A stretch of DNA of 64,000 bases from Ignavibacteriota bacterium (GTDB lineage Bacteria > Bacteroidota > Ignavibacteria > UBA10030), in contig PMZI01000023.1 in NCBI GenBank assembly GCA_003170475.1, forward strand, positions 20,587-84,586. Direction: 5' to 3'. The notes beneath the pieces were generated by a model that saw nothing but the letters and a program-made list of their open reading frames with translations, did no database searches and was not told where the DNA came from. Within the stretch, counting starts at the first letter, position 1, and every line of letters begins with the position of its first letter. This document shows, piece after piece, positions 6,431 to 44,588 of this stretch. The position numbers were made by a program, and so were the translations under genes.

Positions 6431-6460
6431 AATCGAATTCTGCATACGTTCATCAACTGA

Positions 6461-6505
6461 GGAAGCAGACGCTGAACCATTGGAGTCTGCTCCTTCAGCG
6501 TTTTG
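6461..6505 (+). terminator. stem-loop plus T-run after the first ASST gene
   Basis: Two alternative hairpins: GCAGAC/GTCTGC or ACGCTGAA/TTCAGCGT, followed by TTTG. Confidence 0.4.
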
Positions 6506-6568
6506 TGGGGCGACGAACAAAGAGTTAGTGAGCCGACCTTAGTAATCATTATCTAAGAAGGAGGAGAT

Positions 6569-8491: not shown

Positions 8492-8590
8492 GATGGTGCA
8501 TTCTGTCGTGAGGATATTGATTCGTGGGTCGTTGGCTCGCGAGGTCAGAATGCCAACCCGATGAGCGGATAGTGTGTGAGAAACAGAACA

Positions 8591-8623
8591 GCCCGGGTTC
8601 TTGCGATCCCGGGCTTTTGTTTT
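8591..8623. terminator. rho-independent terminator between convergent genes
   Basis: GCCCGGG-ttcttgcgat-CCCGGGC followed by TTTTGTTTT. Confidence 0.7.
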
Positions 8624-8637
8624 GATGACTCCTTCTG

Positions 8638-9438
8638 CTATTTTCCTTTGATTTTCTCCAGCAAATCGGTCGCATCCTTGCGGAACTGTCCATCGTCTTC
8701 ATCCATTGTTGCGAGAGACGGAATGGCGTTCAAGTGAGTACGCGCTTTTTCATATTCGTCTTGCTCAACGTACACACGAGCGCAGTCGAGATGGTACATG
8801 ATAAAGTTCGGCCGCAAAGCGATTGCCTTTTCGCAATTCTTGACCGCATCATCGAGGTTGGCCCATCCCAAGCCCAACGGCCAGCGAACTATCCTCGGCT
8901 TTTCGCAAACCTTCATATGCGTTCTGCCCAGAACGTAGTACGCTGCTGCGTCGTTCGGATCAAGCGCAATTGCCTTTTCGCAATCCGCTTTCACTTGCTT
9001 CACGAGATCGAGAGACTCCCAGACACCTTTGAACAGTGCTATCCGACCGTTCGCGATCGCCCGCCGTGTGTACGCCATGGCTCCGTTCGCATTGGCGGCG
9101 ATGGCTTTGTTCGCAAACTCTCGGGATTTCTCATAGACTTCCAGCTGTTTTGCCTTTTCCTGTTCTGTCCCCGCCGGCAGATGTTCACCGAGATCAACAA
9201 GGGAGCGGCTGATGCGCCAGAGTATTTCATGATTGCCTGGTTCCAGTGCGAGCGCCGCCTCATAACTGTCGAGCGCTTTCTGGTTCTCGAACGTCTTCTC
9301 GGAATACATGTTTCCCTGAGCAATCAACTGATCCACGCGCGATGAGTCCGGCGCAGACGCAAAGAGTTGAGCAGCCCAGGAGACCGACAACACGAACACA
9401 CAGAGCACGAGCCGTTCTCGTTGGACGGATGTTTTCAC
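8638..9438 (-). CDS. secreted TPR-repeat protein
   Basis: ORF 8638..9507. An in-frame GTG at 9438 lies 9 nt downstream of GGAGG and yields the signal peptide VKTSVQRERLVLCVFVLSVSWAAQLFA. Repeated A-x-x-x-Y/F...AL..P.. helical pairs. Confidence 0.7.
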   Translation of the reverse strand: MKTSVQRERLVLCVFVLSVSWAAQLFASAPDSSRVDQLIAQGNMYSEKTFENQKALDSYEAALALEPGNHEILWRISRSLVDLGEHLPAGTEQEKAKQLEVYEKSREFANKAIAANANGAMAYTRRAIANGRIALFKGVWESLDLVKQVKADCEKAIALDPNDAAAYYVLGRTHMKVCEKPRIVRWPLGLGWANLDDAVKNCEKAIALRPNFIMYHLDCARVYVEQDEYEKARTHLNAIPSLATMDEDDGQFRKDATDLLEKIKGK

Positions 9439-13566: not shown

Positions 13567-14442
13567 ATGATTGCCAACAACGGACGACTCAAAATTGCCA
13601 TTCAGAAAAGTGGCCGATTAACAGAAGACTCTCTTTCACTCCTGCGTGCATGCGGACTCGAATTCGAGTTTCAGAAACAAAGCCTCTATTCACCCTGCCG
13701 GAACTTCGACCTCGACGTTCTTGCCCTTCGCGATGACGACATTCCTGAATATGTTCAGGATGCCGTCGCCGATCTCGGGATCGTTGGCGAGAACATTGTC
13801 CGGGAAAAAGGTGCCCGAGTTGAGACGATCTCTGTGCTTGGGTTCGGAGAGTGCCGCCTTTCCATCAGTGTTCCGCAACGGTCATCCATTCGCTCCGTGA
13901 AGCAGCTCAACCGAAAGCGCATTGCCACATCCTATCCGACGACGCTGAAACAGTACCTTCGCTCCCAGGGACTCAAGGCGGAGGTGATTGAACTCAGCGG
14001 TGCTGTGGAACTCGCGCCGACGCTTGACGTGGCAGATGCAATTTGTGATATTGTGTCCACGGGGACGACGGCTCGGGTGAACGGCTTGCGCCCGCTCACG
14101 ACGGTATTGACCTCCGAAGCTGTTCTCGTCGCCAACCGGGCAACGTTAAGAAACCCGAAGAAGAAGCAGCTCATCGACCGACTCCTCATTCGTATTTCCG
14201 GAAGTCTCCAGGCCCACGGAAAACGGTACATGATGATGAATGCGCCGGCAACCGCCGTCCCGCGCCTGAAGAAAATCATTCCAAGCTTGAAAAGCCCCAC
14301 GGTCGTTCCGCTGGCCGATGAAGGAATGGTGGCTCTCCACTCGGTGATCCCCGAAGACGTGTTCTGGGACGTCATGGAGAAGTTGAAGAAAGCCGGAGCA
14401 AGTGACATTGTTGTCGTACCCATTGAAGCGATTATCCGATGA
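13567..14442 (+). CDS. hisG: ATP phosphoribosyltransferase, long form
   Basis: 291 aa including a C-terminal regulatory domain. LKIAIQKSGRL...DIVSTGTT pattern. Confidence 0.92.
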   Translation: MIANNGRLKIAIQKSGRLTEDSLSLLRACGLEFEFQKQSLYSPCRNFDLDVLALRDDDIPEYVQDAVADLGIVGENIVREKGARVETISVLGFGECRLSISVPQRSSIRSVKQLNRKRIATSYPTTLKQYLRSQGLKAEVIELSGAVELAPTLDVADAICDIVSTGTTARVNGLRPLTTVLTSEAVLVANRATLRNPKKKQLIDRLLIRISGSLQAHGKRYMMMNAPATAVPRLKKIIPSLKSPTVVPLADEGMVALHSVIPEDVFWDVMEKLKKAGASDIVVVPIEAIIR

Positions 14443-15740
14443 AACTCTACTCTTCAAATCGGTTGACGCGCGAAGACCGGAAACGGTTATGCCTCCGCCC
14501 CTGGAGCATCGACACGTCGCTCCGCGAGACCGTGGCCTCTCTCTGCCTCGACGTCAAACAGAGGGGTGACGATGCCTTAAAGGAATACAGTAAGAAATTC
14601 GACGCTGTTCCTATTTCCGAGTTCGGTGTGGCAACTCCAGAAATTGAAGACGCGCGCAGCAATGTACCCCCGGCACTCGTCGCTGCCATCGAGCATGCAG
14701 CACGAAACATTCGGGCATTTCATGCCGCGCAGGCGCGAACTGAGGAGAGAATTGAAACGGAAACCGGCGTTGTCTGCTGGCGTGAACGTCGAGCGATTGA
14801 CACTGTCGGGCTCTATGTGCCTGCCGGTTCCGCACCGCTGCCATCGACAGTTCTTATGCTGGGAATTCCAGCGCTGCTTGCCGGGAGTCGCCGGATTATC
14901 CTGTGCTCGCCGCCGAAATCCAATGGAACCGTTGATCCGGCAGTGCTTGCAGCAGCAGCCTACCTTGGCATACGGGAAATCTACAAGGTGGGGGGCGCTC
15001 AGGCTATTGCAGCGATGGCGTACGGAACGCAATCGATCCCGAAAGTCGAAAAGATCTTTGGGCCGGGGAACCAATATGTCACCGAAGCAAAACGCTTTGT
15101 CTCCTCTGATCCCGATGGTGCTGCCATTGATCTCCTCGCGGGACCTTCAGAACTGTTGATCATTGCCGATGACTCGGCCGATTCTACCATTGTCGCTGCG
15201 GACTTGCTTTCACAAGCCGAGCACGACCCCCAATCACAAGTCGTTCTCTTAACCACGAGCGAAGCACTTGCAGAAGCAACGATGAGTGAAGTTCAGTTGC
15301 AGCTCCAACGACTTCCCCGGAACGAGATTGCCGCGAAGTCTCTGGACAACAGTTACGCAATCGTTATGCGATCGGTTGAAGAGGCCGTCGGCTTCTCGAA
15401 CATGTATGCACCAGAGCATCTTCTGATCAATACGCGCAGTCCAGAAATACTTGTGTCGGAAATCCAGAACGCCGGATCTGTCTTTCTCGGCTCATTTGCA
15501 CCCGTTACTGCTGGAGATTATGCTTCCGGTACCAATCATACACTTCCCACCGGGGGGTCGGCAAGATGGGTCAGCGGCCTTTCCGTCGAGAGTTTTCAAA
15601 AATCGATGACGTTTCAGTCGATCACCCGGCATGGTCTCGAGCGGCTGGCTCCTGCTTTGACAACGCTCGCAAAGGCTGAGGGGCTTGAAGCACACGCCCG
15701 GGCTGTGACACAGCGACTCGATCGACAAGTACGCTCATGA
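14439..15740 (+). CDS. hisD: histidinol dehydrogenase
   Basis: 433 aa. QAEHDPQSQ and GDYASGTNHTLPT motifs. ATGA overlap with hisG. Confidence 0.95.
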   Translation: MKLYSSNRLTREDRKRLCLRPWSIDTSLRETVASLCLDVKQRGDDALKEYSKKFDAVPISEFGVATPEIEDARSNVPPALVAAIEHAARNIRAFHAAQARTEERIETETGVVCWRERRAIDTVGLYVPAGSAPLPSTVLMLGIPALLAGSRRIILCSPPKSNGTVDPAVLAAAAYLGIREIYKVGGAQAIAAMAYGTQSIPKVEKIFGPGNQYVTEAKRFVSSDPDGAAIDLLAGPSELLIIADDSADSTIVAADLLSQAEHDPQSQVVLLTTSEALAEATMSEVQLQLQRLPRNEIAAKSLDNSYAIVMRSVEEAVGFSNMYAPEHLLINTRSPEILVSEIQNAGSVFLGSFAPVTAGDYASGTNHTLPTGGSARWVSGLSVESFQKSMTFQSITRHGLERLAPALTTLAKAEGLEAHARAVTQRLDRQVRS

Positions 15741-16789
15741 TCGACATTGAAACCCTTATACGACCGAACATTCGTGCGCTGAAACCGTACCGGAGCGCTC
15801 GCCAGGATTATCTAAGCGGTGTGCTGCTGGACGCGAACGAGAATGCGTTTGGCAGCGCCATTACGTTCGACGGATTGGATCTCAATCGTTATCCTGATCC
15901 CTTCCAGACCGCCCTGCGTTCCCGACTTGCTCAGCTCCATGAAGTCCAACGCGAAAACCTCTTTGTTGGAGTCGGATCCGATGAAGTGATCGATCTCCTT
16001 CTGCGTATTTTCTGCGAGCCTCGGAAAGACGCGGCGCTCATTCTCGAACCCACCTACGGAATGTATCGCGTCGCCGCAGACGTTAACAATGTCGAAGTGG
16101 ATTCCTGCTTGCTGACCGACGATTTTCAGATCGATGTGGAGGCTGTCAAGAAGTGTACGAAGGAAAACACGAAAATCATCTTCTGCTGTTCTCCGAACAA
16201 CCCGACCGGCAACCTTCTGAATCGTGACGACATCCTGAACCTTTGTGCTCAGACGTCAGCCATCGTCGTTGCCGATGAAGCGTACGCCGACTTCGCCCAG
16301 GCTGAATCGTTGATATCATCCATCGGGCAATTTCCCAATCTCGTTGTTCTGCGTACGTTGTCGAAGGCCTGGGGCCTGGCGGCCATCCGGCTTGGCTACG
16401 CCGTTGCTCACCCGCAGATTGTCACGTATCTGATGAAGGTGAAGTCGCCATACAACATCAATATCCTCACAAGCACCGAGGCGTTGAAGGCGCTTGTCAA
16501 CACAGAGCATGTACAAAAGAGCGTGGCGGCCGTCGCCGCCGAGAGGCAGAGGCTTGTGAGGGAATTGTCTACATTTCAATTTGTGAAGAAAGTCTATCCG
16601 TCGGACGCGAACTTTCTTCTGGTCCGTTGCACTGAAGCGCGATTACTGTATACGCAACTTGCTCAGCGCGGTATCATTGTGCGCGATCGAAGCTCCGAGC
16701 CAAAACTGGAGAACTGTCTTCGCATTTCCATTGGCACTCCTGAACAAAATGATCTCCTCCTGAATGCATTAAAGGAACTTGAACAATGA
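15737..16789 (+). CDS. hisC: histidinol-phosphate aminotransferase
   Basis: 350 aa. PNNPTGN and PLP-lysine context RTLSKAWGLAAIRLGY. ATGA overlap with hisD. Confidence 0.93.
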   Translation: MIDIETLIRPNIRALKPYRSARQDYLSGVLLDANENAFGSAITFDGLDLNRYPDPFQTALRSRLAQLHEVQRENLFVGVGSDEVIDLLLRIFCEPRKDAALILEPTYGMYRVAADVNNVEVDSCLLTDDFQIDVEAVKKCTKENTKIIFCCSPNNPTGNLLNRDDILNLCAQTSAIVVADEAYADFAQAESLISSIGQFPNLVVLRTLSKAWGLAAIRLGYAVAHPQIVTYLMKVKSPYNINILTSTEALKALVNTEHVQKSVAAVAAERQRLVRELSTFQFVKKVYPSDANFLLVRCTEARLLYTQLAQRGIIVRDRSSEPKLENCLRISIGTPEQNDLLLNALKELEQ

Positions 16790-17877
16790 GCCTCGTCTTT
16801 CTCGATCGTGACGGAACAATTATCGTCGAACCGCCTGATGAGCAGATCGATTCACTTGAGAAGCTTGAACTTCTTCCCGGCGTCATTGAGGGACTTCGTT
16901 TGCTTCGCGACAGAGGATTTGAATTGGTCCTCGTCACAAATCAGGATGGACTAGGCACGGATCGATTTTCCCAGGACTCCTTTGATGCGCCGCAGAAAAA
17001 GCTTCTTGGCATCCTTCAGGGTGAAGGAATAGCATTCTCACAGGTTTTCATCTGCCCGCATATTCCTGCCGACCAGTGCGGCTGCAGGAAGCCAAAGACC
17101 GGACTCGTGGCGGATTACCTCAGAGAGAAGAAACCCGATCTCCGGCAAACATTCATGATTGGCGACCGTGAATCTGATGTGCAGTTCGGAAAGAACGTCG
17201 GCTGCAAAACGATTCGATTGGGGGGTTCTCCGGGAACCGCTGCCGATGTTGCTGTGAATAATTTTCTCGATGCCTGCCGATATATCGCATCCAGCATCCG
17301 TACCGCACATATTGACCGGGCGACAAACGAGACATCCATTGCGGTTGACGTCTCTCTCGACGGAACAGGATCATACGTGGTGAACACGGGCCTGGGCTTT
17401 TTCGATCATATGATTGCGCAACTTTCAAAGCATTCTCTGATCGACATCAAACTGAGCGTCAAAGGAGATCTGCATGTCGACGAGCACCATACTATAGAGG
17501 ACACGGGCCTGGCCTTGGGTGAAGCCCTTCGACAGGCGCTTGGAGATAAGCGCGGTATTGAGCGCTATGGTTTTCTCCTTCCGATGGACGAGTCTCTTGC
17601 ACAGGTGGCAATTGACCTTGGCGGCAGGCCGTTCTTTCTGTTTCAGGGAACATTCGAACGAGAACGAGTAGGCGAATTCCCGACAGAGCTTGTGGAGGAT
17701 TTCTTCCGCGCGTTTGCCGATGGATTGCGGGCAAATCTCCATATCACGGTGCAGGGTCGGAACGATCATCACAAAATTGAGGCAATCTTCAAAAGTGTTG
17801 CAAGAGCGCTGAAACAAGCGATCGCGATCGATCCCAAATCTTCTGGCTCGCTTCCGTCGACGAAAGGATCGCTATGA
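16786..17877 (+). CDS. hisB: bifunctional histidinol-phosphatase / imidazoleglycerol-phosphate dehydratase
   Basis: N-terminal HAD motif FLDRDGT...VTNQDG. C-terminal IGPD histidine motifs DEHHTIED and NDHHKIEA. Confidence 0.93.
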   Translation: MSLVFLDRDGTIIVEPPDEQIDSLEKLELLPGVIEGLRLLRDRGFELVLVTNQDGLGTDRFSQDSFDAPQKKLLGILQGEGIAFSQVFICPHIPADQCGCRKPKTGLVADYLREKKPDLRQTFMIGDRESDVQFGKNVGCKTIRLGGSPGTAADVAVNNFLDACRYIASSIRTAHIDRATNETSIAVDVSLDGTGSYVVNTGLGFFDHMIAQLSKHSLIDIKLSVKGDLHVDEHHTIEDTGLALGEALRQALGDKRGIERYGFLLPMDESLAQVAIDLGGRPFFLFQGTFERERVGEFPTELVEDFFRAFADGLRANLHITVQGRNDHHKIEAIFKSVARALKQAIAIDPKSSGSLPSTKGSL

Positions 17878-18461
17878 TCGGCATCATCGATTATGGAGCC
17901 GGCAACATCCGGTCCGTCGGCAATGCCCTCGATCGGCTCGGTCAACAGTATTTCGTGTCGAACAATATCGCTGAACTTCAGCGGGCCGGGAAGCTGATCT
18001 TGCCGGGTGTCGGAGAAGCACGCAGCGCGATGGAATCGCTCGGGCAAATCGGACTTCTCCGCTGGTTGACAAACGTAACCGTTCCATTTCTTGGGATTTG
18101 CATCGGCATGCAAATTCTTTTTGATCATTCCGATGAGCGAGATACGGCATGCCTCGGTGTCGTTCCGGGTCGAATCTCGCGCTTCGACGATACGAAGCTG
18201 AAGGTTCCGCACATCGGTTGGAATCGGGTCAATGTCACTGCAACGAGTCCTCTTTTCAGCAAGATTCGTGACAACGAGTTCTTTTACTTCGTCCATTCGT
18301 TCCGCGCATCCGTCGGGCCCAACACCATCGGGATGACGGAGTATGGCGAAGCGTTCTCCGCGGCAGTGCAGAAGCAGAATTTTTACGGCGTCCAGTTCCA
18401 TGCGGAGAAGTCGGGGGATGCCGGTATTCAGGTATTGAAAAACTTTATTGAATTATGCTGA
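17874..18461 (+). CDS. hisH: imidazole glycerol phosphate synthase, glutaminase subunit
   Basis: 195 aa. Catalytic GICIGMQ and the late FHAEKS motif. Confidence 0.93.
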   Translation: MIGIIDYGAGNIRSVGNALDRLGQQYFVSNNIAELQRAGKLILPGVGEARSAMESLGQIGLLRWLTNVTVPFLGICIGMQILFDHSDERDTACLGVVPGRISRFDDTKLKVPHIGWNRVNVTATSPLFSKIRDNEFFYFVHSFRASVGPNTIGMTEYGEAFSAAVQKQNFYGVQFHAEKSGDAGIQVLKNFIELC

Positions 18462-19177
18462 TTTATCCGGCGATCGACATTTATCAGGGAAATTGTGTCC
18501 GGTTACGGCAGGGCGATTTCGCGTCTCAAAACGTGTATTCCGATTCTCCTTCAGCCGTGGCCCGGTCGTTCCGGGACGCCGGCCTGAATTCCCTCCACGT
18601 CGTTGACCTGGAAGGCGCAAAGGAGAGTCATATTGTCAACTGGGAGGCCCTCACCTCCATTCTGGAGATTGACTCGATGCAAGTCCAGATCGGAGGCGGG
18701 ATTCGTTCACGCGAGGACATTTGCCGACTTTTCGATGCGGGAGCAGCGCGAGTCGTCATCGGCAGCCTCGCGGTTGAATCTCCTCATGTTGTTCAGGATT
18801 GGATCCGCGAATTCGGAACAGAGCGATTTGTGATCGCGGTCGATGTTCGCGATGGAGCGGTCGCTCACAAGGGCTGGCTTGAACGCGCTCATCTTACTGC
18901 ATCAACGTTTGTGGACGCAATGGCACGCGCCGGTGCGACAAGTTTTCTTTGCACCGATATCAATCTCGATGGAATGCTCGGCGGTCCGAACCTGGAGCTG
19001 TATCGGTCACTCCTGGCAGAGTTTCCTTCAATTCATCTCATTGCATCCGGAGGGGTTTCGCAGATCAGGGATATCGAAAATCTCGCGGGCATTGGCTGCC
19101 ACGCTGTCGTGGTCGGGAAAGCACTGTACGAGGGAAAAGTGACGACGGATCAATTGAGTGGTTTCACCAAAAAGTGA
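18455..19177 (+). CDS. hisA: ProFAR isomerase
   Basis: 240 aa. [16 protein letters not shown]-terminus and (beta/alpha)8 glycine-rich phosphate sites. Confidence 0.92.
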
Positions 19178-19184
19178 AGAACAC

Positions 19185-19940
19185 ATGTTGACAAAGCGGA
19201 TCATACCCTGTCTCGATGTCAAGGATGGCAGGACCGTCAAGGGGACAAAATTCGTGGACTTGCGCGACGCGGGCGATCCCGTGGAACTCGCATCGCGGTA
19301 CTCCGACGAAGGAGCAGATGAACTTGTCTTTCTTGATATCAGCGCTTCGAGAGAAGGACGGAAGACCTTTCTCGCGGTTGTCGAACGCGTCGCCCGGGCA
19401 ATTCAGATTCCGTTTACCGTCGGCGGCGGAATCAGTGTTGTCGATGACGTCTTACGCGCTCTTGACGCAGGAGCTGACAAAGTCTCCCTGAACACAGCGA
19501 TCGTGGAGCAACCGGAGTTTCTGCAGGCAGCTTCGTCGGCTGTTGGTTCACAATCGATCGTTGCTGCCATTGACGCCAAACGAAAGGGAAGCAGTTGGAG
19601 CGTCTGGACAAAGGGCGGGTCGGAGGAATCGCCGCTCGATGCCATTGCCTGGGCTCAGGAAGCCGTCCGACGCGGTGCCGGCGAACTTCTGATAACATCC
19701 ATGGATGCAGATGGCACAAAAGAAGGTTACGACCTCGACTTGCTTCGAACAATTTCACAGTGTACCAGTGTTCCCGTGATTGCCTCGGGAGGTGCTGGAA
19801 CAAAAGAGCACATCAAAGACGCCATCACCATTGGCAAAGCTGATGCGGTTCTCGCGGCGAGTATTTTCCATTATCAACAGATATCGATTGCCGATATCAA
19901 AGAGTTTCTACAGACAAACAATATTCCGGTCCGGATATGA
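19185..19940 (+). CDS. hisF: imidazole glycerol phosphate synthase, cyclase subunit
   Basis: ORF 19158..19940; ATG at 19185 ([20 protein letters not shown]) follows the hisA stop by 7 nt. Confidence 0.93.
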
Positions 19941-20569
19941 TCGACAAATTGAATTTCGAAAAGATGAACGGCCTGATACCTGCAGTCATTCAGGACGCAA
20001 CAACCAGGCAGGTGCTCATGCTTGGCTATATGAACAAGGAAGCGCTGGGGAAGACTCTGGAAGAACGAAGAGTCACATTCTGGAGCAGAACAAAGAATCG
20101 ATTCTGGCAAAAGGGTGAAACTTCCGGCAATGTGCTTGAAGTGGATTCCGTGAAAGCCGACTGCGACGGAGATGCTCTCCTGGTGTACGCGCATCCTTCA
20201 GGTCCCGTGTGTCACACCGGAACGCACACATGTTTTGGCGAAGAAGCGACGGACGAAGTGAGTTCTGTGCTCGGCAAGCTGGAAAATATCATTAGGGTCC
20301 GCCGACAGGACCGACCCGAGGGTTCGTATACAGCAAAACTCTTTCAGCAGGGCACAGGGCGTATCGCGCAGAAAGTCGGAGAAGAAGCCGTCGAGACGGT
20401 GGTCGCAGCCCTGCAGCAGGACCGAGAAGCACTCAAGGAGGAATCGGCAGATCTCCTTTACCATTTGATTGTCCTTCTCGAAGATCGAGGAGTAAAATTA
20501 GCGGATGTTGCCGGGGTATTAAGAAAGAGGATGGAAAAGCCGATACCGAAGCCATCGCCGGCCGGCTAG
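19937..20569 (+). CDS. hisIE: bifunctional phosphoribosyl-AMP cyclohydrolase / phosphoribosyl-ATP pyrophosphatase
   Basis: 210 aa. N-terminal HisI pattern (LIPAVIQD...[16 protein letters not shown]...DCDGDALL...CH) plus a C-terminal HisE helical domain. Confidence 0.92.
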
Positions 20570-30841: not shown

Positions 30842-30981
30842 GGTTTGTTGTGTTCACAAAGAGTCCTTTGATATAGGTAATGTAGCAGATTCCAGGGGAA
30901 AACAAAATCACCCATCCCGCGGGCTCCAGCCGTGGCTTTTCGCTTTTGCCGTGGCCACGTTTTTCGTACCATCATAGTATC

Positions 30982-32496
30982 ATGAAACCGATTCTGCTTT
31001 CCGTTTTGCTCTTTTCTTTCAACGCCGTCGTCACCGCCCAGGACTCCTCTTTTGTTCAGAGAGATGGTGCCCATCTCACGTCGGCAGGAAAACCATTTTA
31101 TGCTGTTGGGGCAAATTGCTACTACCTGCATGATCTTGCCGTTCAAGGTGACACCGTGCACATTACGGAAGTTCTGAGGAATGCGCGAGAACTCGGGTTT
31201 ACCGCAATCCGAACGTGGGGGTTTTACGATGGCACGGACTCGTCAAATTCCGCCGTCATCCAATTTGCACCGGGGCGGTACAATGAGCGGGCGTTGCGTT
31301 CACTCGACTTTGTTGTCGCGAAAGCAAGAGAGTTTTCGCTTCGTCTTATCATCACGCTGGTGGACAACTGGGATTACTACGGCGGAATGAATCAGTACGT
31401 CCGGTGGCTTGGCGGCAGCTCGTTGACGAAAGGACTGTTGCAAACGGAGAGAACGTTTTCATCCCCGATGGTCACAAGTGTGGGAGGACGGTCGTATGCC
31501 ATGCAGCCCACCGTAGCGTACACGCACGACGATTTCTATCGAAATGCGACAATCAAGCAGTGGTACAAAAATTACGTTTCGATGATTCTCAATCGCTTCA
31601 ACGTCTTTACGGGCAAAACCTACAAGAACGAACCAACGATCATGCTCTGGGAGCTTGCTAACGAACCACGGTCCTCAGACCCATCCGGAAATCTCGTCAA
31701 CGGATGGATACAGGAGATGGCCACATTTGTTAAACAAATCGACAAGGTGCATTGTGTTGGGACGGGAGAGGAAGGCCACGACATCCAGGGTATGCCGTAC
31801 GCGCCCGCTCTTCTCGCGGCTCAACAGTGGATATTCAACGGAAGTGCCGGCATTTCGTTTCTGAAAGATATTCAACTGGATGTCGTCGATGTAGCGAGCA
31901 TTCATTTCTATCCTGAAGATTGGGGGTTTGCGCCCGGCGCTGTTTCTGATTGGATCCAGGACCACCAGCGATTGGCGCTCGGGCAGCAGAAACCACTTCT
32001 CATCGGGGAGGTGGGGATTCGGAAACAACGCACCCCATTCTTTGACGCCGTTGCCAGCACGGCATTCTCCGAAAACGTAGCAGGTCTTCTCTTCTGGCAG
32101 CTCGCGTACCCGGGTCAAACGAATCTTGACGGTTATCAGTTCTCTTGCCCTTCAAGCGATCCGGTTTGCGGTCTGCTTTCCCGCACAAGCTCCCTTTTCG
32201 CGCAGCGGCGGTCGTCAAGCTATACACCTCCAACCTCCGTCCGATTCTTTGCGAGTTATCCGAACCCATTTAACTACATTACGGCACTGTCGTTTGATAT
32301 TCCCTCCTCCGAATTCGTCAGGCTGGAGGTCTTCGACTTGCTTGGGAGGAGGCTTGCGTCGCTCGTCGACGAAGCCCTGCCAGCCGGAACGCACGCTGTG
32401 CTCTTCAATGCATCAACGGCATCCAGCGGAGTGTTCATCGCTCGACTGCGTGTAGGGAACAACGTTTTCTTTCAGAAGCTGGTCCTCGTGAAATGA
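30982..32496 (+). CDS. GH5 glycoside hydrolase (mannanase/cellulase-like) with T9SS C-terminal domain
   Basis: ORF 30946..32496; ATG at 30982 (MKPILLSVLL signal). Acid/base motif WELANEPR, candidate nucleophile LLIGEVG, CTD at 32245..32493 (YPNPFNY). Confidence 0.8.
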   Translation: MKPILLSVLLFSFNAVVTAQDSSFVQRDGAHLTSAGKPFYAVGANCYYLHDLAVQGDTVHITEVLRNARELGFTAIRTWGFYDGTDSSNSAVIQFAPGRYNERALRSLDFVVAKAREFSLRLIITLVDNWDYYGGMNQYVRWLGGSSLTKGLLQTERTFSSPMVTSVGGRSYAMQPTVAYTHDDFYRNATIKQWYKNYVSMILNRFNVFTGKTYKNEPTIMLWELANEPRSSDPSGNLVNGWIQEMATFVKQIDKVHCVGTGEEGHDIQGMPYAPALLAAQQWIFNGSAGISFLKDIQLDVVDVASIHFYPEDWGFAPGAVSDWIQDHQRLALGQQKPLLIGEVGIRKQRTPFFDAVASTAFSENVAGLLFWQLAYPGQTNLDGYQFSCPSSDPVCGLLSRTSSLFAQRRSSSYTPPTSVRFFASYPNPFNYITALSFDIPSSEFVRLEVFDLLGRRLASLVDEALPAGTHAVLFNASTASSGVFIARLRVGNNVFFQKLVLVK

Positions 32497-33378: not shown

Positions 33379-34233
33379 CTAGAATTGCTGGGGAAGATTT
33401 GTCGAAGGAGTCAGAAGCGCCAGAAGTTGTTGTTTTCCCACCGTCGAAACCGCCACACACACCAAGCCATCCTTTTTCCAGACAACGACATTGCAGTTCG
33501 GATGAAGCGGGTCGGTATACCAGCCTGATCGTGCGAGTGCGGCCTTGGCCGCCGGCGGGAGAGAGAGCCGGGGTCCGTTCAGGGCGTCGCTGCTATTCAT
33601 TTCGCAGACGTACACCCATTCCTCGCCGAGTTTGTACACCAGGTGTGCTTGTTTCACCCCCCTGTTGTCAGAAGCGGATCCGCCGTACCAGTTGTATCCT
33701 CGGATCTTTGGAATTTGAACTCCAAATTGCAGAAAGCTCTTCTGAAAAAACCCACCCACACTCTCAGGTACTGACGAGACCGTTGCCGGAACAAACTGGC
33801 CTGTTTTCAACAGTGCAAAAGTTTCAAACGATTGACGGATGATATCATTTTCTGCGGTATGCGCCGACAGAAGCGATGACCGATCACTCGGAATGCCGAC
33901 CATGAGGAAGAATGCGGCAGCAACCGCTCCACCGGTCAATGCCGGAACGAGGACGCGCAATCGGGTTGCCCTTGCGAACCAGGAATTGTTCCTTGAGCCG
34001 TCAGATTTATATTCTTGATGCAGGGAAGCGACAACGAAGGTCTGTATACTCGGAGGGGTGGAAATCCACGAAACATGTCGCTGGACCAACTTCTTTGACA
34101 GCTGCTCCAGCATAACGTCATCGCGGCACGGTCTGCACCGTTCGAGGTGAGACCGGAACTCATACTCTGCGTCTTTCGCCAGAACTCCATCAATCGCACC
34201 GCCAGCATGCTGCCGGACGCCGTCACAATCCAC
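33379..34233 (-). CDS. anti-sigma factor (zf-HC2) with one TM and an uncharacterised extracytoplasmic domain
   Basis: GTG start. HLERCRPC zinc-finger motif, central hydrophobic span LVPALTGGAVAAAFFLMVGI. Immediately downstream of the ECF sigma gene. Confidence 0.65.
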   Translation of the reverse strand: MDCDGVRQHAGGAIDGVLAKDAEYEFRSHLERCRPCRDDVMLEQLSKKLVQRHVSWISTPPSIQTFVVASLHQEYKSDGSRNNSWFARATRLRVLVPALTGGAVAAAFFLMVGIPSDRSSLLSAHTAENDIIRQSFETFALLKTGQFVPATVSSVPESVGGFFQKSFLQFGVQIPKIRGYNWYGGSASDNRGVKQAHLVYKLGEEWVYVCEMNSSDALNGPRLSLPPAAKAALARSGWYTDPLHPNCNVVVWKKDGLVCVAVSTVGKQQLLALLTPSTNLPQQF

Positions 34234-34279
34234 AGGAGCACCTCAAGAAACCGGATAACAATGCGTTCTGTTATCCTTT

Positions 34280-34873
34280 CTAATCGCCCTTGATAATCCC
34301 CTGCTGCCTGGCATATTCGTACAATTTGTCCTGCAGCAGCTTCCGTCCCCGGTGTAGTCGTGATCGGACGGTTCCAATAGGGCACTCGATAAATTCCGCG
34401 ATCTCCTCGTACGTCAACCCTTCAATATCACACAAAATCACAACAGTTCGAAAATCGTCTGGAAGGCTTTGCAGTGCTTTCGTTACTTCGTCACCAAGCA
34501 GATTTCCGTACAGTTGCTGCTGAAGATCGTTGGGGTCCGTCGACTGAGCGCGGATCGAATTATAAAAGTTCTCGATGTCATCGTAATCAACCTTATCCGG
34601 TTCTTTTGTTTCCTTCCGATACCGGTTGATATACGAATTCTTCATAATCCTGAACAACCACGCACGAATATTCGTTCCCTTTTCATACTTATCCCAGAAG
34701 CGATACGCTTTGAGATACGTTTCCTGTAAAAGGTCCCGCGCATCGTTTTCATTCCCCGCAGTACGCAACGCGAAGTTGTACAGCACATCCATGTGAGGCA
34801 ACGCTTCTGCCTCAAACTCGGCATGCTTCTTCTTCGTTCCGCGAGAAACGCTTGGTTGATTCAGAGAAGCCAT
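34280..34873 (-). CDS. ECF-type RNA polymerase sigma factor
   Basis: 197 aa. Region 2 (DLLQETYLKAYRFWDKY) and region 4 HTH (LTYEEIAEFIECPIGTVRSRLHRGR). Confidence 0.85.
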   Translation of the reverse strand: MASLNQPSVSRGTKKKHAEFEAEALPHMDVLYNFALRTAGNENDARDLLQETYLKAYRFWDKYEKGTNIRAWLFRIMKNSYINRYRKETKEPDKVDYDDIENFYNSIRAQSTDPNDLQQQLYGNLLGDEVTKALQSLPDDFRTVVILCDIEGLTYEEIAEFIECPIGTVRSRLHRGRKLLQDKLYEYARQQGIIKGD

Positions 34874-39178: not shown

Positions 39179-39521
39179 TCCCATCACCGCTGACGGTTCG
39201 GTTTTATCTCACGCAAACCCGGAGTCGCCGACTCTTGTCGTGGAAGAATGTGTTCTATGAAATCTTTCACTTCTCGCGGAGAGCGGTCTTCTTCGCGCTT
39301 ACGTACATTGTTTGCGGCCGGCGTTCTTATTCCGGCTCCCCTTACATCATGAGCGCGTGATGGTTTTCGCTTTCTTCGTTCAGCCTCCCATCTGAAGACT
39401 TCCTTAAGTATCACCCAGGAGATTGCCGACACCGGGAGATATTCATCGCTTGTGTTTGTTCGCGACGCTTGCGTGCCGCAATGTGTGCTCGCGTTCGCTC
39501 GTCCAAGGAGTATTATAGATT

Positions 39522-39722
39522 ATGCAAATGAGCGACACCCCAACTCTTCCTGACGAAGCGCAAGAGATCGAGACCAAGCGCATTCCCCCGCGAAATGAAT
39601 ATCGGGCCAGGGGGGAAGGCTCTTTGCGGAAGATGAAGCGGTTACAGGACCTCTTGGTTTCAGAACATCAAGGGTGGTGTGCAAGGGATATTTTGGATGT
39701 TGTTCGGGTCACGCAGCCATAG
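39522..39722 (+). CDS. hypothetical small protein (doubtful)
   Basis: 66-aa ORF with AAGGAG 12 nt upstream. No recognisable domain. Lies in the gene-poor stretch. Confidence 0.2.
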   Translation: MQMSDTPTLPDEAQEIETKRIPPRNEYRARGEGSLRKMKRLQDLLVSEHQGWCARDILDVVRVTQP

Positions 39723-40539
39723 GGGGAGCCACGACGTCGCCGTGCATTTTCCAAAAAATGGAGTTGCGGGAGAATTGTCACTCGCTTGTCGGTGGTGAAC
39801 CAGATTCCACGGGTCAACACTTCAATGCCGACAATCGGCAGATCAGAGATGGAGATTTCTCACCTCTGGAACTTGCTCACGAGCAGACACACAATGCGAA
39901 TGGCAACATGCTTTGTATTCGGTGAACGGAAAATTAAGATCGTCGTAAGAAACGCCCAACGAGTGCTATTCAGAGCTCGACCGCGCTTTCCGTGAAGTGA
40001 CTATCCGGTCGGCGTTACGAATTCAAACGCATCTGTTGTCGAGATCCCATGGTGATTTCGGGAAGAGACTCTGATTTTCTTGAGTTCGCGCGGTTCATTG
40101 CCTGCCAAGCCGAGACACCAATAGAGAGATCACATTGCACAAGACCACACCGGGCCTATCTGAGGAAGACCGGGGTTTCACGATGAGGCAAGTGGGAGAC
40201 AAATAGTGAGAGAAGCAGGAATCTTCAGTGGCCAGGGCTTGTTACATTATGAGACATGTCTCGTTTTATTTCTGTCCAAGAAAGAAAACAGACTCTTTTG
40301 GGTTCCGAAGTTTCCAGAAAACCTCACATTACTTGATAATTCCTTGTTGGTACGCCTATTGAGATATGAATCTCGGCAGTGATTCAGATACCTCGATTTC
40401 GCAGAATTTCTCAAATGTGATACCAGTCATTTGATGTTCCGCCACTAATCAACTAATTTGATTGGAGCATCGCGTTCGTGTCTTCAAGGCCGACACGTCG
40501 ATAACAGGCTGTGAAGGATTGGAAGAAAGGTAGATTCTT

Positions 40540-41034
40540 ATGGGTACGGGCCAGACTATTCTCACCATCGTTGCCATCGTCCTCCTGGGCACGAACGTCG
40601 TCAGCGTGAACAGGACGTTCACGCAGCATGGGATTGTTCTCCAGCAAACTGAGATTGGACTCTTTGGAGTATCGCTCGCGACATCTCTTCTTGAAGAGGC
40701 TCGCGGCAAGGCATTCGATCATTACTCCTTGATCGGGTTTCCTACCGTCCTGACGCAGTTGACTCCGCAAGATTCTCTCGGTCCGGAACCAAGCGAGCTT
40801 CGCGCCAACTGGGATGACTTCGACGATTACAATAATCTTAGAGACACCGTGAAAGTGCCTGACGTCGACACGTTCTATCGGTGGGCCACAGTCTGCTACG
40901 TAGACACGACGAACCCAAACATCCTGCGAAATTACCGGACGTGGATGAAGAAGCTTACGGTGTACGTCAGAGGACAGAACTCGAGTGATACTCTCCAGAT
41001 GTCCTATCTCTTCAGCAACTGGTCATTCAGGTGA
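40540..41034 (+). CDS. pilin-like protein 1 (PilV/GspI-like minor pseudopilin candidate)
   Basis: N-terminus MGTGQTILTIVAIVLLG is a pilin-type hydrophobic helix without Glu5. A TAG 3 codons upstream fixes the start. GAAAGG lies 9 nt upstream. Has a WDDFDDYNN motif like minor pseudopilins. Confidence 0.5.
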   Translation: MGTGQTILTIVAIVLLGTNVVSVNRTFTQHGIVLQQTEIGLFGVSLATSLLEEARGKAFDHYSLIGFPTVLTQLTPQDSLGPEPSELRANWDDFDDYNNLRDTVKVPDVDTFYRWATVCYVDTTNPNILRNYRTWMKKLTVYVRGQNSSDTLQMSYLFSNWSFR

Positions 41035-41037
41035 ACC

Positions 41038-41679
41038 ATGGGAACGAATGTCATATTCGATATCATCACATCGACGGTCATCGGAGGCATGCTCTTGTTA
41101 ATGGCACTTCGGCTGAACGCCCAGGCCATTGAGACCAATGCCATCTACCAGGACAACCTCAATCTCCAGACGGGGTTGGTCGCCCTCGTCGATATCGTTG
41201 AAAACGATTTCCGAAAAATTGGCTATTGCAAAGACTGGACCAAAATCAGTCCGCCGAACATCGCCATCGTCTACGCCGATTCCAATAGCATTAAATTCCT
41301 CACAGACATTCCGTCAAGTCCTACCGACTTTGGCGATGGCATCGTTGATACCATCTATTACTACACCGGTTCAACCGGAGGCAATCCGAATAATCTGAAA
41401 GAGAAGCCTCTCTATCGTGTCGTCAATGGTAATGCGGCCACGGGCTGGAATCTCGGCGTCACCCGATTCGCCCTTCGGTACTACGACGCCCTGAACGATA
41501 CTCTTCATTTCCCCATTACAGATCCGACACTCATCTACGAACTCGAGGTCAACATCTCTCTCGAGAGCCCGGCGCCCCTGACAAAAATCAGCTATCACGA
41601 CACAACGGCCGCCAAAGAAGATTTCAAAGTATACTGGAAACAAATCCGGCTTGCATCGCGCAACCTGCGAAACCGATAG
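41038..41679 (+). CDS. pilin-like protein 2 (PilW/GspJ-like candidate)
   Basis: MGTNVIFDIITSTVIGGMLLLMAL helix, followed by LVALVDIVENDFRKIGY...SIKFLTD...DTIYYY...LYRVVNG...FALRYYD, a PilW/GspJ-like pattern. Confidence 0.5.
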   Translation: MGTNVIFDIITSTVIGGMLLLMALRLNAQAIETNAIYQDNLNLQTGLVALVDIVENDFRKIGYCKDWTKISPPNIAIVYADSNSIKFLTDIPSSPTDFGDGIVDTIYYYTGSTGGNPNNLKEKPLYRVVNGNAATGWNLGVTRFALRYYDALNDTLHFPITDPTLIYELEVNISLESPAPLTKISYHDTTAAKEDFKVYWKQIRLASRNLRNR

Positions 41680-41694
41680 ACAAAGGAGTGATCC

Positions 41695-42903
41695 ATGGGA
41701 CGTTCATCTCTTATAATGGTCCTTGGTTTTACCACGGCCCTTCTTATGCTCGGCTCAAACATTTCGAGAGTATCCAACTCGGCGATGGATAACTATACGT
41801 ACTACTACAACAATGCCATGGCACACAACATCGCGGGGGCTGGCATCAACATGGCCTCGCGGTCGCTCCAGGAAAACCAATTCTGGACAGCTGGATTCTC
41901 CAACAAGAGTTTTTCCAACGGCATATTCAGTGTCGCGGTGACCAGCCTCGGAAGCCAGAAAATAAAGGTGGTCTCAACGGGAACCTTCGCCGGTTCCCAA
42001 CACGTTGTCTCTTGTGTTCTTCAGCCGAGCTCCTTTTCAAAATTCAATTACTACAGCGTCACTGACCAAAACGGATTCTGGGGGGGCGGTGACACGATCT
42101 GGGGGCCATTCCACTGCAACAACACCATCAACGTAGCCTATTTCAATGGCGGCAGCCCCGTGTTCATGCAGAAGGCGACGAGCCTGAACGGTATTTGGAA
42201 CTACAACGGAGCGCATCCGGTTTTCAAGGGGGGGTACGCTGCTGGTGTGAATGTGGCATTGCCGGGTGACCTCTCTTCACTCAAAACTGCGGCGCAGACC
42301 AGTGGCCATTATTTCAACGGGCAGAAACTGTTTGTACAGTTAAACGCAAACGGAACCGTTACGTGGAAAGCTGGCGGAAGCGATTGGGGGGGCGGGGGCT
42401 GGACAACTGAGCCTGTCACCTCCTTCACAGCAAATGGTGCTGTATGGTGCAATGGATCGGACGTTCACGTCAAGGGAACCCTGCATGGGCAAATGACATT
42501 GGGAAGCGGAGGCCAGATTTGGATTGACGATGATGTTACATACGCCACCGATCCGCGGTACGCTTATTCGACGGACATGTTGGGGCTTGTCGCTGAGGGA
42601 AAACTCTGGATTTCTGACGTCCCCGCCAACCACGGCAATGACTTTATGCTCATGGCTTCCGTGTTCTCGCGAACGGATGGTCTCTGGGCTGAAAACTATG
42701 GCTCACGCCCCGTCGAAGGAAAAATGACCACGCTTGGCGGACAGATATCGAACGTGGGCGGGTATACAGGTACGTTTTCGGGTACCACGATCACCCACGG
42801 ATTCCTGCCGGGGGGCACGTTTTATGACCCCCGATTGTTAAACGATGCACCGCCGTTTTTCCCGACGACGGGTAATCTTGAAGTTATTTCATGGTTTGAG
42901 TAA
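41695..42903 (+). CDS. PilX_N-like large pilin-like protein, paralog A
   Basis: MGRSSLIMVLGFTTALLMLG...AMAHNIAGAGINMASRSL resembles the PilX N-terminal domain. AAAGGAG lies 6 nt upstream and a TGA 2 codons upstream. The body is Gly/Asn-rich and beta-rich (402 aa). Confidence 0.55.
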   Translation: MGRSSLIMVLGFTTALLMLGSNISRVSNSAMDNYTYYYNNAMAHNIAGAGINMASRSLQENQFWTAGFSNKSFSNGIFSVAVTSLGSQKIKVVSTGTFAGSQHVVSCVLQPSSFSKFNYYSVTDQNGFWGGGDTIWGPFHCNNTINVAYFNGGSPVFMQKATSLNGIWNYNGAHPVFKGGYAAGVNVALPGDLSSLKTAAQTSGHYFNGQKLFVQLNANGTVTWKAGGSDWGGGGWTTEPVTSFTANGAVWCNGSDVHVKGTLHGQMTLGSGGQIWIDDDVTYATDPRYAYSTDMLGLVAEGKLWISDVPANHGNDFMLMASVFSRTDGLWAENYGSRPVEGKMTTLGGQISNVGGYTGTFSGTTITHGFLPGGTFYDPRLLNDAPPFFPTTGNLEVISWFE

Positions 42904-43286
42904 GAGCTTTGTAAATTCACAGACTGTTCAATCTACATTGAACGCAAGAGAGCAACAGCGCTAAGTGTATCATCACCAAAGAATCGAGAATAAATCCGAT
43001 GGCAAATTTTGTTGCTCCTCGGATTTTGATCTCGTTGCCGGAGATTTTTAAGACCATCCGGCTGATCGGCGCTTCTGGGCTTGAAGGGAAGAATCTGCGA
43101 ACGTAGACACCAGATCGCCCATTGTTTTCTCTTGAACCAAGGACACTTCGACATCATTTCGCTTTTTGTAACTCATACGTAAGGATCGTTGATAACAAGA
43201 TCCTGCCGAAGCGGACTCTCAGGGGAGTCCGGCTGCCTTCTGCCCCGCTCTGCTTCTCAAATTGCACCGGCCAAAAGGAATATCCC

Positions 43287-44534
43287 ATGGGACGAGCTTC
43301 GCTCATCATGGTCCTGGGCTTCACAACGGCCCTGCTCATGATCGGTTCAAACATCTCCAAGATATCGAACGCGGCGATGGACAACTACACCGCCTACTAT
43401 AATGATGCAATGTCGCATTCCATCGCGGGTGCAGGTATCAATATGGCTTCCCGGGCTCTCTACGAAAATTCGCTCTGGCGCTCAGGGTTTTCCAATAAGA
43501 GTTTCGGCAACGGAACGTTCGACGTCCAGGTAACAGACCTTGGAAGCAACCGGATAAGAATTGTCTCCACAGGCACCTTCTCCGGTATCGCGCATGTTGT
43601 AGCCTGTGTTCTCCAACCGAGCAGTTTTTCGAAATTCGCCTACTACAGTGTCACCGATCAGAACGGTTTTTGGGGAGGCGGCGACACCATCTGGGGACCA
43701 TTCCACTGCAACAACACCATCAACGTCGCCTATTTCAATGGCGGCAGCCCCGTGTTTATGCAGAAGGCGACGAGTCTGAACGGTATTTGGAACTACAATG
43801 GCGCCCATCCTGTCTTCAAAGGAGGGTACGCTGCGGGTGTGAACGTTTCATTGCCGGCAAACCTGACACCACTGCAGACATCGGCACAGACGGGCGGCAA
43901 GTATTTCACGGGTGCGGGTGGAGATGTGTTCATTCAGCTGAACAGTGACGGGACCGTGACATGGAGACAAGGCGGAGCGGCGGATTGGAGCGGCACTGGT
44001 TGGTCAACCGATCCGATCAGCTCATTTGCTCCGAACGGAGCGCTCTATCTGACCGGCGCAAATCTCCGACTCAAAGGAACGCTTCATGGACAGCTGACCA
44101 TTGGTGTCGGCGGCACGACAGGGAGCACGACGCAGGGTAACATGTGGCTTGACAACGATGTCGTTTACAAAGATGATCCTCGCAACGGATATTCTACGGA
44201 CATGCTCGGCCTTGTTGCCGAGAACAAGCTCCAGATCACGGATAATGCATGGAATCAAGGCCCAGGCAACGACTTCACGTTGATGGCATCAGTCTTTTCG
44301 AGGACGGATGGCCTATGGGCTCAGAATTATGGATCCCGGGGAGTCGAAGGAAAACTGATCACGCTCGGCGGCCAGATCTCGAACGTTGGCGGATACACGG
44401 GCACTTTCTCCGGTACCACCATTACTCACGGCTTCACGCCGGGAGGCACATACTACGATCAACGCCTTATGAATGATGCTCCGCCGTTCTTTCCGACAAC
44501 AGGAAATTTCGAGGTCGTTTCATGGTTTGAATAG
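43287..44534 (+). CDS. PilX_N-like large pilin-like protein, paralog B
   Basis: ORF 43122..44534. The start is taken at ATG 43287 by homology to paralog A (MGRASLIMVLGFTTALLMIG) and AAAGGA 7 nt upstream. 415 aa. Confidence 0.55.
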   Translation: MGRASLIMVLGFTTALLMIGSNISKISNAAMDNYTAYYNDAMSHSIAGAGINMASRALYENSLWRSGFSNKSFGNGTFDVQVTDLGSNRIRIVSTGTFSGIAHVVACVLQPSSFSKFAYYSVTDQNGFWGGGDTIWGPFHCNNTINVAYFNGGSPVFMQKATSLNGIWNYNGAHPVFKGGYAAGVNVSLPANLTPLQTSAQTGGKYFTGAGGDVFIQLNSDGTVTWRQGGAADWSGTGWSTDPISSFAPNGALYLTGANLRLKGTLHGQLTIGVGGTTGSTTQGNMWLDNDVVYKDDPRNGYSTDMLGLVAENKLQITDNAWNQGPGNDFTLMASVFSRTDGLWAQNYGSRGVEGKLITLGGQISNVGGYTGTFSGTTITHGFTPGGTYYDQRLMNDAPPFFPTTGNFEVVSWFE

Positions 44535-44557: not shown

Positions 44558-44588
44558 AAAAAGATCGCCCTAGAGGCGATCTTTTTTT
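44558..44588 (+). terminator. rho-independent terminator after the pilin-like cluster
   Basis: AAAAAGATCGCC-ctaga-GGCGATCTTTTTTT. Confidence 0.8.

Follow-up and report, generated by a model that had tools for sequence, protein, structure and literature searches.

Within a 64,000-nucleotide stretch of contig PMZI01000023.1 of an Ignavibacteriota bacterium (assembly GCA_003170475.1), referred to here as the window, four genes on the forward strand encode pilin-like proteins that we call P1 to P4. The original prediction had described four co-directional open reading frames (ORFs), each starting with MG followed by a hydrophobic helix, and this is confirmed by the ORF calls. Gene 1 (40540-41034) encodes P1, a protein of 164 aa with the N-terminus MGTGQ that resembles a minor pilin and occupies the PilV/GspI position; gene 2 (41038-41679) encodes P2, of 213 aa and starting MGTNVIFD, which resembles minor pilins of the PilW/GspJ/PpdB type; and gene 3 (41695-42903) encodes P3, of 402 aa and starting MGRSS, a putative tip pilin of the ComZ/PilX type with an inserted beta-rich, solenoid-like domain. 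The fourth gene (43287-44534) encodes P4, a P3 paralog of 415 aa that is likely an alternative tip pilin; its longest ORF opens at a TTG at 43122, and homologs put the true start at the ATG at 43287 (MGR). In-frame stops at 40531 (TAG), 41032 (TGA) and 41689 (TGA) lie 2-3 codons ahead of the ATGs of P1-P3 and leave no room for the longer leader that had already been judged impossible there. A Shine-Dalgarno-like sequence is present at each start. The cluster closes on the forward strand at an intrinsic terminator (44558-44588) with a 12-bp GC-rich stem, a 5-nt loop and a U-run, whose folding energy (-21.6 kcal/mol, z = -3.1) agrees with the strong terminator predicted at that place.

The four genes are flanked by pdxJ and by a gene for a pyridoxal phosphate enzyme of the Ala_racemase_N/D-Ser-dehydratase type, as Pfam shows and as had been proposed. 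The claim that no pilus machinery lies in the window also held: Pfam found no T2SSE, T2SSF, secretin, Peptidase_A24 or N_methyl domain among the 40 window ORFs scanned, and the E. coli K-12 GspC-O probes, run with phmmer, gave zero matches across every ORF of the 64 kb.

Genes 1, 2 and 3 (hereafter the module) lie in one reading frame in the window, with their stop codons and 1-5 codons between them, and the same is seen in three loci of relatives (L001, L002 and L004). Of 99 modules, 32 share the frame in this way, where chance would predict 11%. Stop-codon read-through into a polyprotein was considered and rejected, since the shared frame is confined to those 32 modules and each gene has its own Shine-Dalgarno sequence and start; it probably reflects inherited spacing or shared ancestry.

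A scan of the GTDB species representatives returned 250 module loci. The context was read in the best 80 of these 250, all of them in Ignavibacteriota-type genomes, including metagenome-assembled genomes (MAGs) of Ignavibacterium album and Melioribacteraceae. In 79 genome loci the order gene 1-gene 2-gene 3 was invariant and the genes were tightly packed. Conservation of the module extends across Ignavibacteriota, where it is usually an orphan and often duplicated. Since tandem modules (two or three) and extra copies of gene 3 after the module are common in relatives, the layout in the window, one module plus an extra gene 3, is a standard variant.

The N-termini were surveyed in the 334 module gene copies of these 79 loci, and in family alignments of 54 (P1), 53 (P2) and 54 (P3) sequences. 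The P3 family has 237 homologs, all named 'hypothetical' and all in Ignavibacteriales/Bacteroidota MAGs; 98 of 120 start with MG[RK], and the remaining ones were called at an internal Met. G2 and D8 are invariant in the 53 P2 sequences, as are G4 and Q5 in the 54 of P1, and the first ~30 residues are the best-conserved part of each family. Judged from these alignments, the MG start is a conserved family feature and not a chance one. The hydrophobic alpha1N segment is present in all four proteins of the window; across the families, gene 1 products have 5 residues ahead of the uncharged hydrophobic run, those of gene 2 have 6-8 and those of gene 3 have 3-4. Ahead of the conserved Gly there are just 1-3 residues (MG... 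or M[NG]TG...), for most of the 334 starts an in-frame stop lies fewer than 10 codons upstream, and P1 and P2 have no basic leader. Some gene 2 relatives have no Gly at the N-terminus and read M[SAN]xxLD. The acidic residue near the start follows a pattern of its own: P2 has Asp8, P1 has Gln5 (Glu5 in 6 of 106 copies, reading MN[ST]GE), and P3 and P4 have none, with 0 of 122 gene 3 copies carrying an acidic residue in positions 1-14.

A motif of the G|F-T-L-I-E type, the absence of which from the four proteins the original prediction had pointed out, was found in none of the 334 module gene copies. N_methyl/TIGR02532-type models of Pfam and NCBIfam did not match P1-P4 at E <= 10, and models of the cleavage/methylation motif matched 0 of 161 family members at E <= 0.01. 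Pfam and NCBIfam scans of P1-P4 as a whole gave nothing usable, and no curated family claims them.

For P3, a model built with AlphaFold2 (AF2) from the 54-sequence alignment (predicted local distance difference test, pLDDT, 90) comprises a helix (residues 2-60), a four-stranded sheet (68-113), a beta domain (119-376) and a terminal strand (391-401). Its only significant PDB matches were three chains of 6QVI ComZ (Foldseek E 9e-9 to 8.5e-6, prob 1.0), the next-best match having an E of 2.2, and the order of elements given by DSSP (helix, four strands, beta domain, terminal strand) agrees with that of ComZ. In ComZ a solenoid is inserted ahead of the last pilin strand (PMC6561018); the topology of P3 fits this description, which supports the tip-pilin reading. 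ComZ has a hydrophobic helix from residue 5 and is missed by PilFind; it binds the GspI-like PilA2, and its authors argue that the pilus tip is the sole possible site (PMC6561018). A structural relationship of P3 and P4 to this tip pilin is supported by the model. The 'PilX_N-like' start that had been ascribed to P3 and P4 was not confirmed, as the PilX_N hidden Markov model (PF14341) matches neither them nor 54 relatives. An hhalign comparison of P3 with GspK and YgdB gave nothing. DUF4900 (PF16241) matches neither P3 nor P4 at E <= 10; in Pfam it matches 33 of 54 P3 relatives (best E 5.5e-8). P3 and P4 are 73% identical, and the identity of their DNA is a mosaic, with 96% at codons ~141-160, 83-86% on either side and ~50% at codons ~240-300, a pattern that points either to gene conversion over one tract or to a core under strong constraint beside a diversifying surface region.

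P2 is weakly but consistently PulJ/GspJ/PpdB-like. Its homologs are often named 'PulJ' in the annotation of the Joint Genome Institute (JGI), and some relatives have weak precomputed matches to PF27121 (PpdB). The family alignment matched E. coli PpdB in hhalign (E 4.6e-4, residues 5-67, with a shared GYC motif) and GspJ (E 5.4e-3), and in both alignments the invariant Asp8 falls on precursor Glu12, that is, mature Glu+5. An exhaustive search with the P2 profile yielded 909 representative clusters (50% identity), with E <= 1e-10 for 621; in each of the best 150, the aligned segment opens at residue 1-4. Against PDB sequences the P2 profile had no match.

P1 is always the first gene product of the module. 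Its AF2 model (pLDDT 85) has a helix (residues 3-55) followed by a four-stranded sheet, the 'lollipop' topology of pilins, which is also seen in the predicted secondary structure of P3. The DDFDDYNN motif pointed out earlier in P1 is real and is the best-conserved motif of the head, D93, D95 and D96 being invariant (n=54). The stretch WDDFDDYN (residues 92-99, window 40813-40836) is acidic and lies in the head; as a speculation, it could be a metal (Ca2+) site as in some pseudopilins.

The link to a pilus machine comes from relatives, where machinery was found by E. coli Gsp probing of the locus ORFs. Locus L077, the assignments of which were confirmed by Pfam, carries two 129-aa pilin-candidate genes, T2SSF (PilC), T2SSE (PilB, with a weak MshEN N-domain) and genes 1-2-3, and onward a second, PilT-like T2SSE, a 567-aa PilN-domain protein, a 294-aa gene and a secretin. 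The same machine set is divergently adjacent to the module in L072, the machine and/or the pilins are adjacent to it in L063, and in L011/L012 gene 1 and a gene 2 of the Asp6 type come directly after a PilB-like ATPase. The small genes beside PilC are unrecognised by Pfam and start MGQQQLLLIVLGVI. They belong to a family of ~128 aa with the start MGQQQ[L/I]LLIVLG (L077:4411-5296; L072:7281-8132, minus strand; L063:329-718, minus strand; L094-L173), of which metagenomes hold at least 439 relatives.

The metagenome set of this MGQQQ family consisted of 80 loci (L094-L173), 31 of them at least 8 kb long. One to three MGQQQ genes lie directly upstream of PilC-PilB-PilT in 25 of these 31, with a secretin on contigs that are long enough. 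Of the 80 loci, 12-13 have genes of the module; among the 31 long loci the number is 10, and in two of these 10 the module is partial (L142, genes 1 and 3; L165, gene 3 only). In L106, L117, L123 and L126 they lie between PilB and PilT, and in L102, L129, L138, L144, L165 and L142 they adjoin the machine cluster. The module is inside or beside a PilC-PilB-PilT-PilN-domain-secretin cluster in at least 13 loci. The association with ATPase, platform protein and secretin is found in relatives (L077, L072, L011/L012, L102, L106, L117, L123, L126, L129, L138, L144 and L165) and not in the window. The MGQQQ copies have the exact start MGQQQ[L/I] in 114 of 117 cases, an in-frame stop fewer than 10 codons upstream in 106 of 117 and a median length of 128 aa; models of the cleavage/methylation motif do not match them, and no class III leader motif was found among about 450 pilin-like gene copies. 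Because of its position, size and N-terminal helix, the MGQQQ protein is the best candidate for the major pilin, putatively a leaderless one. Since the major pilin of the relatives is also leaderless and their operon has no prepilin peptidase, the odd N-terminus appears to be a property of the whole system. All four of its pilin classes start 3-8 residues ahead of the hydrophobic helix and lack a basic leader. It had been argued that the four genes would be an ordinary minor-pilin set if relatives carried them inside a canonical, annotated type IV pilus operon; the relatives do have an operon, yet one that is neither annotated nor canonical.

We believe that the cluster is probably a core minor-pilin module (PilV/PilW/PilX-ComZ-like) for priming and tip formation, with P4 as an alternative cap, in a leaderless system of the type IVa pilus (T4aP) kind whose machine is encoded elsewhere in the genome. 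This corresponds to the first of the two readings originally proposed, a non-canonical tip/minor-pilin module for a distant machine, and it is supported by the ComZ-like P3 and P4, the PulJ/PpdB-like P2, the topology of P1, the pattern of acidic residues, the invariant gene order, the linkage in relatives and the signs of sigma54-dependent regulation described below; the analogies with GspI, GspJ and GspK by size and strand are likewise good. From the gene order, the conservation, the fold predictions and the machine linkage described above we infer a scheme in which P1 would take the PilV/GspI position, P2 that of PilW/GspJ and P3 that of PilX/GspK/ComZ, with P4 interchangeable with P3. The N-terminal alpha1 helix of each protein would hold it in the inner membrane, its head facing the periplasm, and the three helices might bundle as a heterotrimer on the PilC platform. 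PilB would then polymerise the ~128-aa MGQQQ major pilin underneath, and the bulky beta domain of P3 or P4 would cap the filament at its tip and could supply binding specificity for a ligand. As genomes carry several modules and extra gene 3 copies, pili with different tips may be made, often under the control of a sigma54 two-component system.

Several results weigh against this interpretation. The template modelling scores (TM-scores) between P3 and ComZ are low (0.31-0.36), and the P3 family profile found no ComZ but only noise among PDB sequences at E <= 10, so the likeness to ComZ is structural only. For P1, Foldseek gave no significant match to solved structures and no pilin, the family profile had no match among PDB sequences, and hhalign against GspI, PpdC and PpdA gave nothing; its assignment therefore follows from topology and gene position. 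The NCBIfam model PRK10557 (PpdB) matched P2 at E 0.029 and 13.7 bits, below its cutoff of 120, the hhalign probability of the PpdB alignment was 33%, and a Pfam scan matched 0 of 53 P2 family members at E <= 0.01. A FimU/GspH-like adapter gene is absent from the module. Finally, neither machinery nor an MGQQQ pilin is found in the window, and the link to the machine is drawn from relatives.

An alternative is that the module caps the short periplasmic pseudopilus of a system resembling that of type II secretion (T2SS), used for example for polysaccharide-degrading enzymes, and not an extended surface pilus. The 'T2SS' of Bacteroidetes clusters phylogenetically with T4aP (PMC6668835), the Cytophaga T2SS is needed for cellulose use (PMC5553014), and P2 is annotated PulJ in a size series resembling I-J-K with no gene of the PilY1 type, all of which would suit a pseudopilus. 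However, a second, PilT-like ATPase is encoded in the linked clusters along with a PilN-domain protein, a combination typical of retractile T4aP, ComZ, the closest relative by structure, is a pilus component, and the recognisable GspG and in-cluster Peptidase_A24 of Cytophaga have no counterpart in the Ignavibacteriota clusters. We consider a pseudopilus unlikely.

The second reading of the original prediction, a membrane-anchored complex of the surface or periplasm that uses the pilin fold and acts on its own, independent of any filament machine, seems to us very unlikely. In its favor, machinery is distant from the module in the window and in about 76 of the 79 genome loci, the proteins have no leader, and P1, P3 and P4 have no Glu5. 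Against it, the module recurs in or beside the PilC-PilB-PilT-secretin clusters of relatives (the loci counted above), the adjacent candidate for the major pilin has the same style of N-terminus, and P2 retains an acidic residue that aligns on Glu+5. That the N-termini are Sec signals cut by signal peptidase I, the proteins being soluble and secreted or periplasmic, is barely credible: a short N-region does precede a hydrophobic stretch, but a basic n-region is absent, conservation in each family is highest over the first ~30 residues, where G/Q/D positions are invariant, AF2 gives the segment as the start of a continuous helix of 53-59 residues as in pilins, and P2 residues 5-67 align with alpha1 of PpdB/GspJ.

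On the interpretation that we favor, a minor-pilin module for a distant T4aP-type machine, the question is how the N-termini are handled. A PilD-family enzyme is regarded as a core, ancestral component of type IV filaments. No prepilin peptidase-like ORF was found in ~1.9 Mb around modules, pilins and machines, and a canonical class III motif was absent from all ORFs of the 80 pilin loci. Two weak GspO-like candidates near clusters were rejected, being proteins of the CcmC/CcmB type. The M. roseus genome paper likewise reported pilB, pilC, pilQ and pilT, and not pilA or pilD. Prepilin peptidases can, on the other hand, be encoded apart and shared between systems (PMC6668835), and the notion of a phylum without any canonical pilins was rejected, as at least one Ignavibacteriales MAG is reported to have a PilFind-positive canonical pilin (PMC7399161).

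Two models of the N-terminus remain compatible with the sequences. In the first there would be no leader at all. Counted from Met1, position 5 is Gln in the major pilin and Gln, or Glu in six copies, in gene 1; the MGQQQ and gene 1 families align 1:1 from Met1, weakly, and loss of Met1 alone would place the Asp of Asp6-type gene 2 proteins (M[SAN]xxLD) at +5. In the second, a minimal leader would be clipped after the conserved Gly, to give MG| for the major pilin and the products of genes 2 and 3, and M[NG]TG| for that of gene 1. Leaders end in Gly or Ala (PMC10191384), and this model fits that rule; its drawback is that the Asp of P2 lands at +6 and that Gln or Arg occupies +1. It is possible, though in our estimation somewhat short of an even chance, that a complete T4aP-type machine (PilB, PilC, PilT, PilN-domain protein and secretin) works on pilins that are translated essentially in mature form, with no need of a dedicated peptidase or of N-methylation. 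Met1 or the next residue would then be +1, and Gln5 (major pilin and gene 1) or Asp (gene 2) would replace Glu5.

The flanks of the module vary clade by clade. Two loci, L013 and L016, keep the synteny of the window: pdxJ, the module, a D-Ser-dehydratase-like gene, MgtE and NRAMP. Just two functional neighbours recur: a histidine kinase and, next to the module in 26 of 79 loci, a sigma54 activator of the NtrC type. PilR-type control of pilins is a precedent for sigma54-linked regulation. Good TGGYAY-N5-TTGC motifs precede gene 1 by 46-121 nt in 16 of 75 other modules, where ~0.6 would be expected. In the window, the non-coding leader/promoter region at 40239-40539 (forward strand) is conserved, with 71-75% identity in L013 and L016; the rest of the 1.36 kb gap upstream of gene 1 is not conserved with them. 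This region contains, in all three syntenic genomes, the sigma54-like -24/-12 element TTGGTACGCCTATTGAGAT (40347-40365, forward strand), reading TGGTAC-N5-TTGA at 40348, and ~100 nt upstream of it the perfect palindrome GAGACATGTCTC (40251-40262), invariant in the window, L013 and L016, which from its sequence conservation may be a regulator-binding site. As the -12 part is degenerate (TTGA, not TTGC), a clean sigma54 promoter in the window was rejected in favor of a degenerate though conserved element. A decayed regulator in the 1.36 kb gap was also rejected, since neither the kinase nor the NtrC-type regulator had a tblastn match there. The part of the gap at 39179-40238, ~1 kb downstream of pdxJ, has no ORF above 83 aa, no Rfam match and no similarity to L013 or L016.

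Some further observations concern the modules of relatives. Between the tandem modules of L001 (11313-14679; also in L002 and L003) there is a 644-aa protein with a weak C-terminal sorting domain of the type IX secretion system (T9SS), and the same interval encodes a protein of ~414 aa with a faint match to LVIVD, a beta-propeller repeat; the two may act at the tip as a PilY1-like partner, or may be cargo and nothing else. In L007, a fragment of 57 aa (8474-8647), homologous to the central part of gene 1, lies just ahead of an intact module and looks like the remnant of a decayed module copy.

Elsewhere in the window, where all ORFs were searched with phmmer, the Pfam matches were to a his operon, T9SS cargo proteins, transporters and assorted enzymes, and the Rfam and tRNA scans were empty. 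The histidine biosynthesis operon (13567-20569; hisG, hisD, hisC, hisB, hisH and hisA/F-type) is ordinary. Several T9SS cargo proteins with Por_Secre_tail domains are encoded at 2788-8491 and 30946-32496, including a GH5 cellulase-like protein and two paralogs in tandem (4517-6430 and 6569-8491) that resemble arylsulfotransferases, a set that fits a polymer-degrading member of the FCB group. An extracytoplasmic function (ECF) sigma factor and a zf-HC2 anti-sigma factor form a pair on the minus strand (33379-34873), ~6 kb upstream of the cluster, that is syntenic in L013.

Pilin-finding tools depend on the class III motif, and a whole, environmentally widespread system, with at least 909 clusters of the P2 type and at least 439 MGQQQ genes, is invisible to those that search by motif. 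A motif search of the literature found no description of it, and its proteins are named 'hypothetical' in the databases. Leaderless pilins probably explain why pilB/C/Q/T were reported in M. roseus with neither pilA nor pilD. The class III signal peptide and the prepilin peptidase are treated as universal and defining for type IV filaments (PMC10191384, PMC6668835). Pilins made in mature form, if confirmed, would be an exception to the rule that all type IV filament subunits are prepilins processed by a PilD-family enzyme, and a peptidase-free system would be a natural experiment on the purpose that leader cleavage, N-methylation and Glu5 each serve when pilins are extracted from the membrane and assembled into filaments. 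If instead a peptidase clips a leader of 1-3 residues, this would be the shortest prepilin leader known. Through their tandem modules with divergent ComZ-like caps, these polysaccharide-degrading, metal-reducing anaerobes would also offer a system in which pilus tips could be swapped.

Among known systems, the ComZ-PilA2 pair of Thermus thermophilus (with PilA1 and PilA3; 6QVI) is similar in that P3 and P4 also combine a pilin domain with a large beta-rich insert before the last strand, and in that the ComZ gene lies beside GspI-like and GspJ-like partners and its product is the proposed pilus cap (PMC6561018). In contrast, there is no detectable sequence similarity, P3 has 402 aa against ~500-520 residues in the ComZ chains, and the Thermus PilA1-3 proteins are described as (pre)pilins whereas the Ignavibacteriota partners and major pilin are leaderless. 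For ComZ, DNA binding through Lys98/Lys233, binding of the GspI-like partner and a role in competence are described.

The cluster CHU_3191-3201 of Cytophaga hutchinsonii (PMC5553014), from the same superphylum, also has a divergent PilB/PilC/secretin set and poorly conserved minor pseudopilins annotated as hypothetical; it differs in its Pfam-recognisable T2S-G and in-cluster Peptidase_A24, neither of which is found in the Ignavibacteriota clusters, which have instead a PilT-like second ATPase. The MSH pilus loci are alike in being type IV filament loci with no prepilin peptidase of their own (PMC6668835), but MSH pilins carry normal leaders of class III and depend on a peptidase borrowed from another system, whereas those of Ignavibacteriota are essentially leaderless.

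With GspI-GspJ-GspK and PilV-PilW-PilX the module shares three co-transcribed genes of rising size, the middle one GspJ/PpdB-like, and a largest subunit that, like GspK/PilX, has no acidic residue. Capping PilX/GspK proteins that lack Glu5 are known, and in cyanobacteria several minor-pilin sets per genome act as alternative primers, with a PilX that has a beta-solenoid (10.64898/2026.02.12.705559). The differences are that no Ignavibacteriota member has a class III signal peptide or N_methyl motif, that the module has neither a GspH/FimU adapter nor PilY1, and that P1 has Gln5 and not Glu5, while the acidic residue of gene 2 is an Asp at position 8 (or 6 or 5). The module would work like GspIJK and PilVWX-ComZ, yet falls outside the type IV pilins and pseudopilins as they are formally defined by the class III signal peptide and the N_methyl motif.

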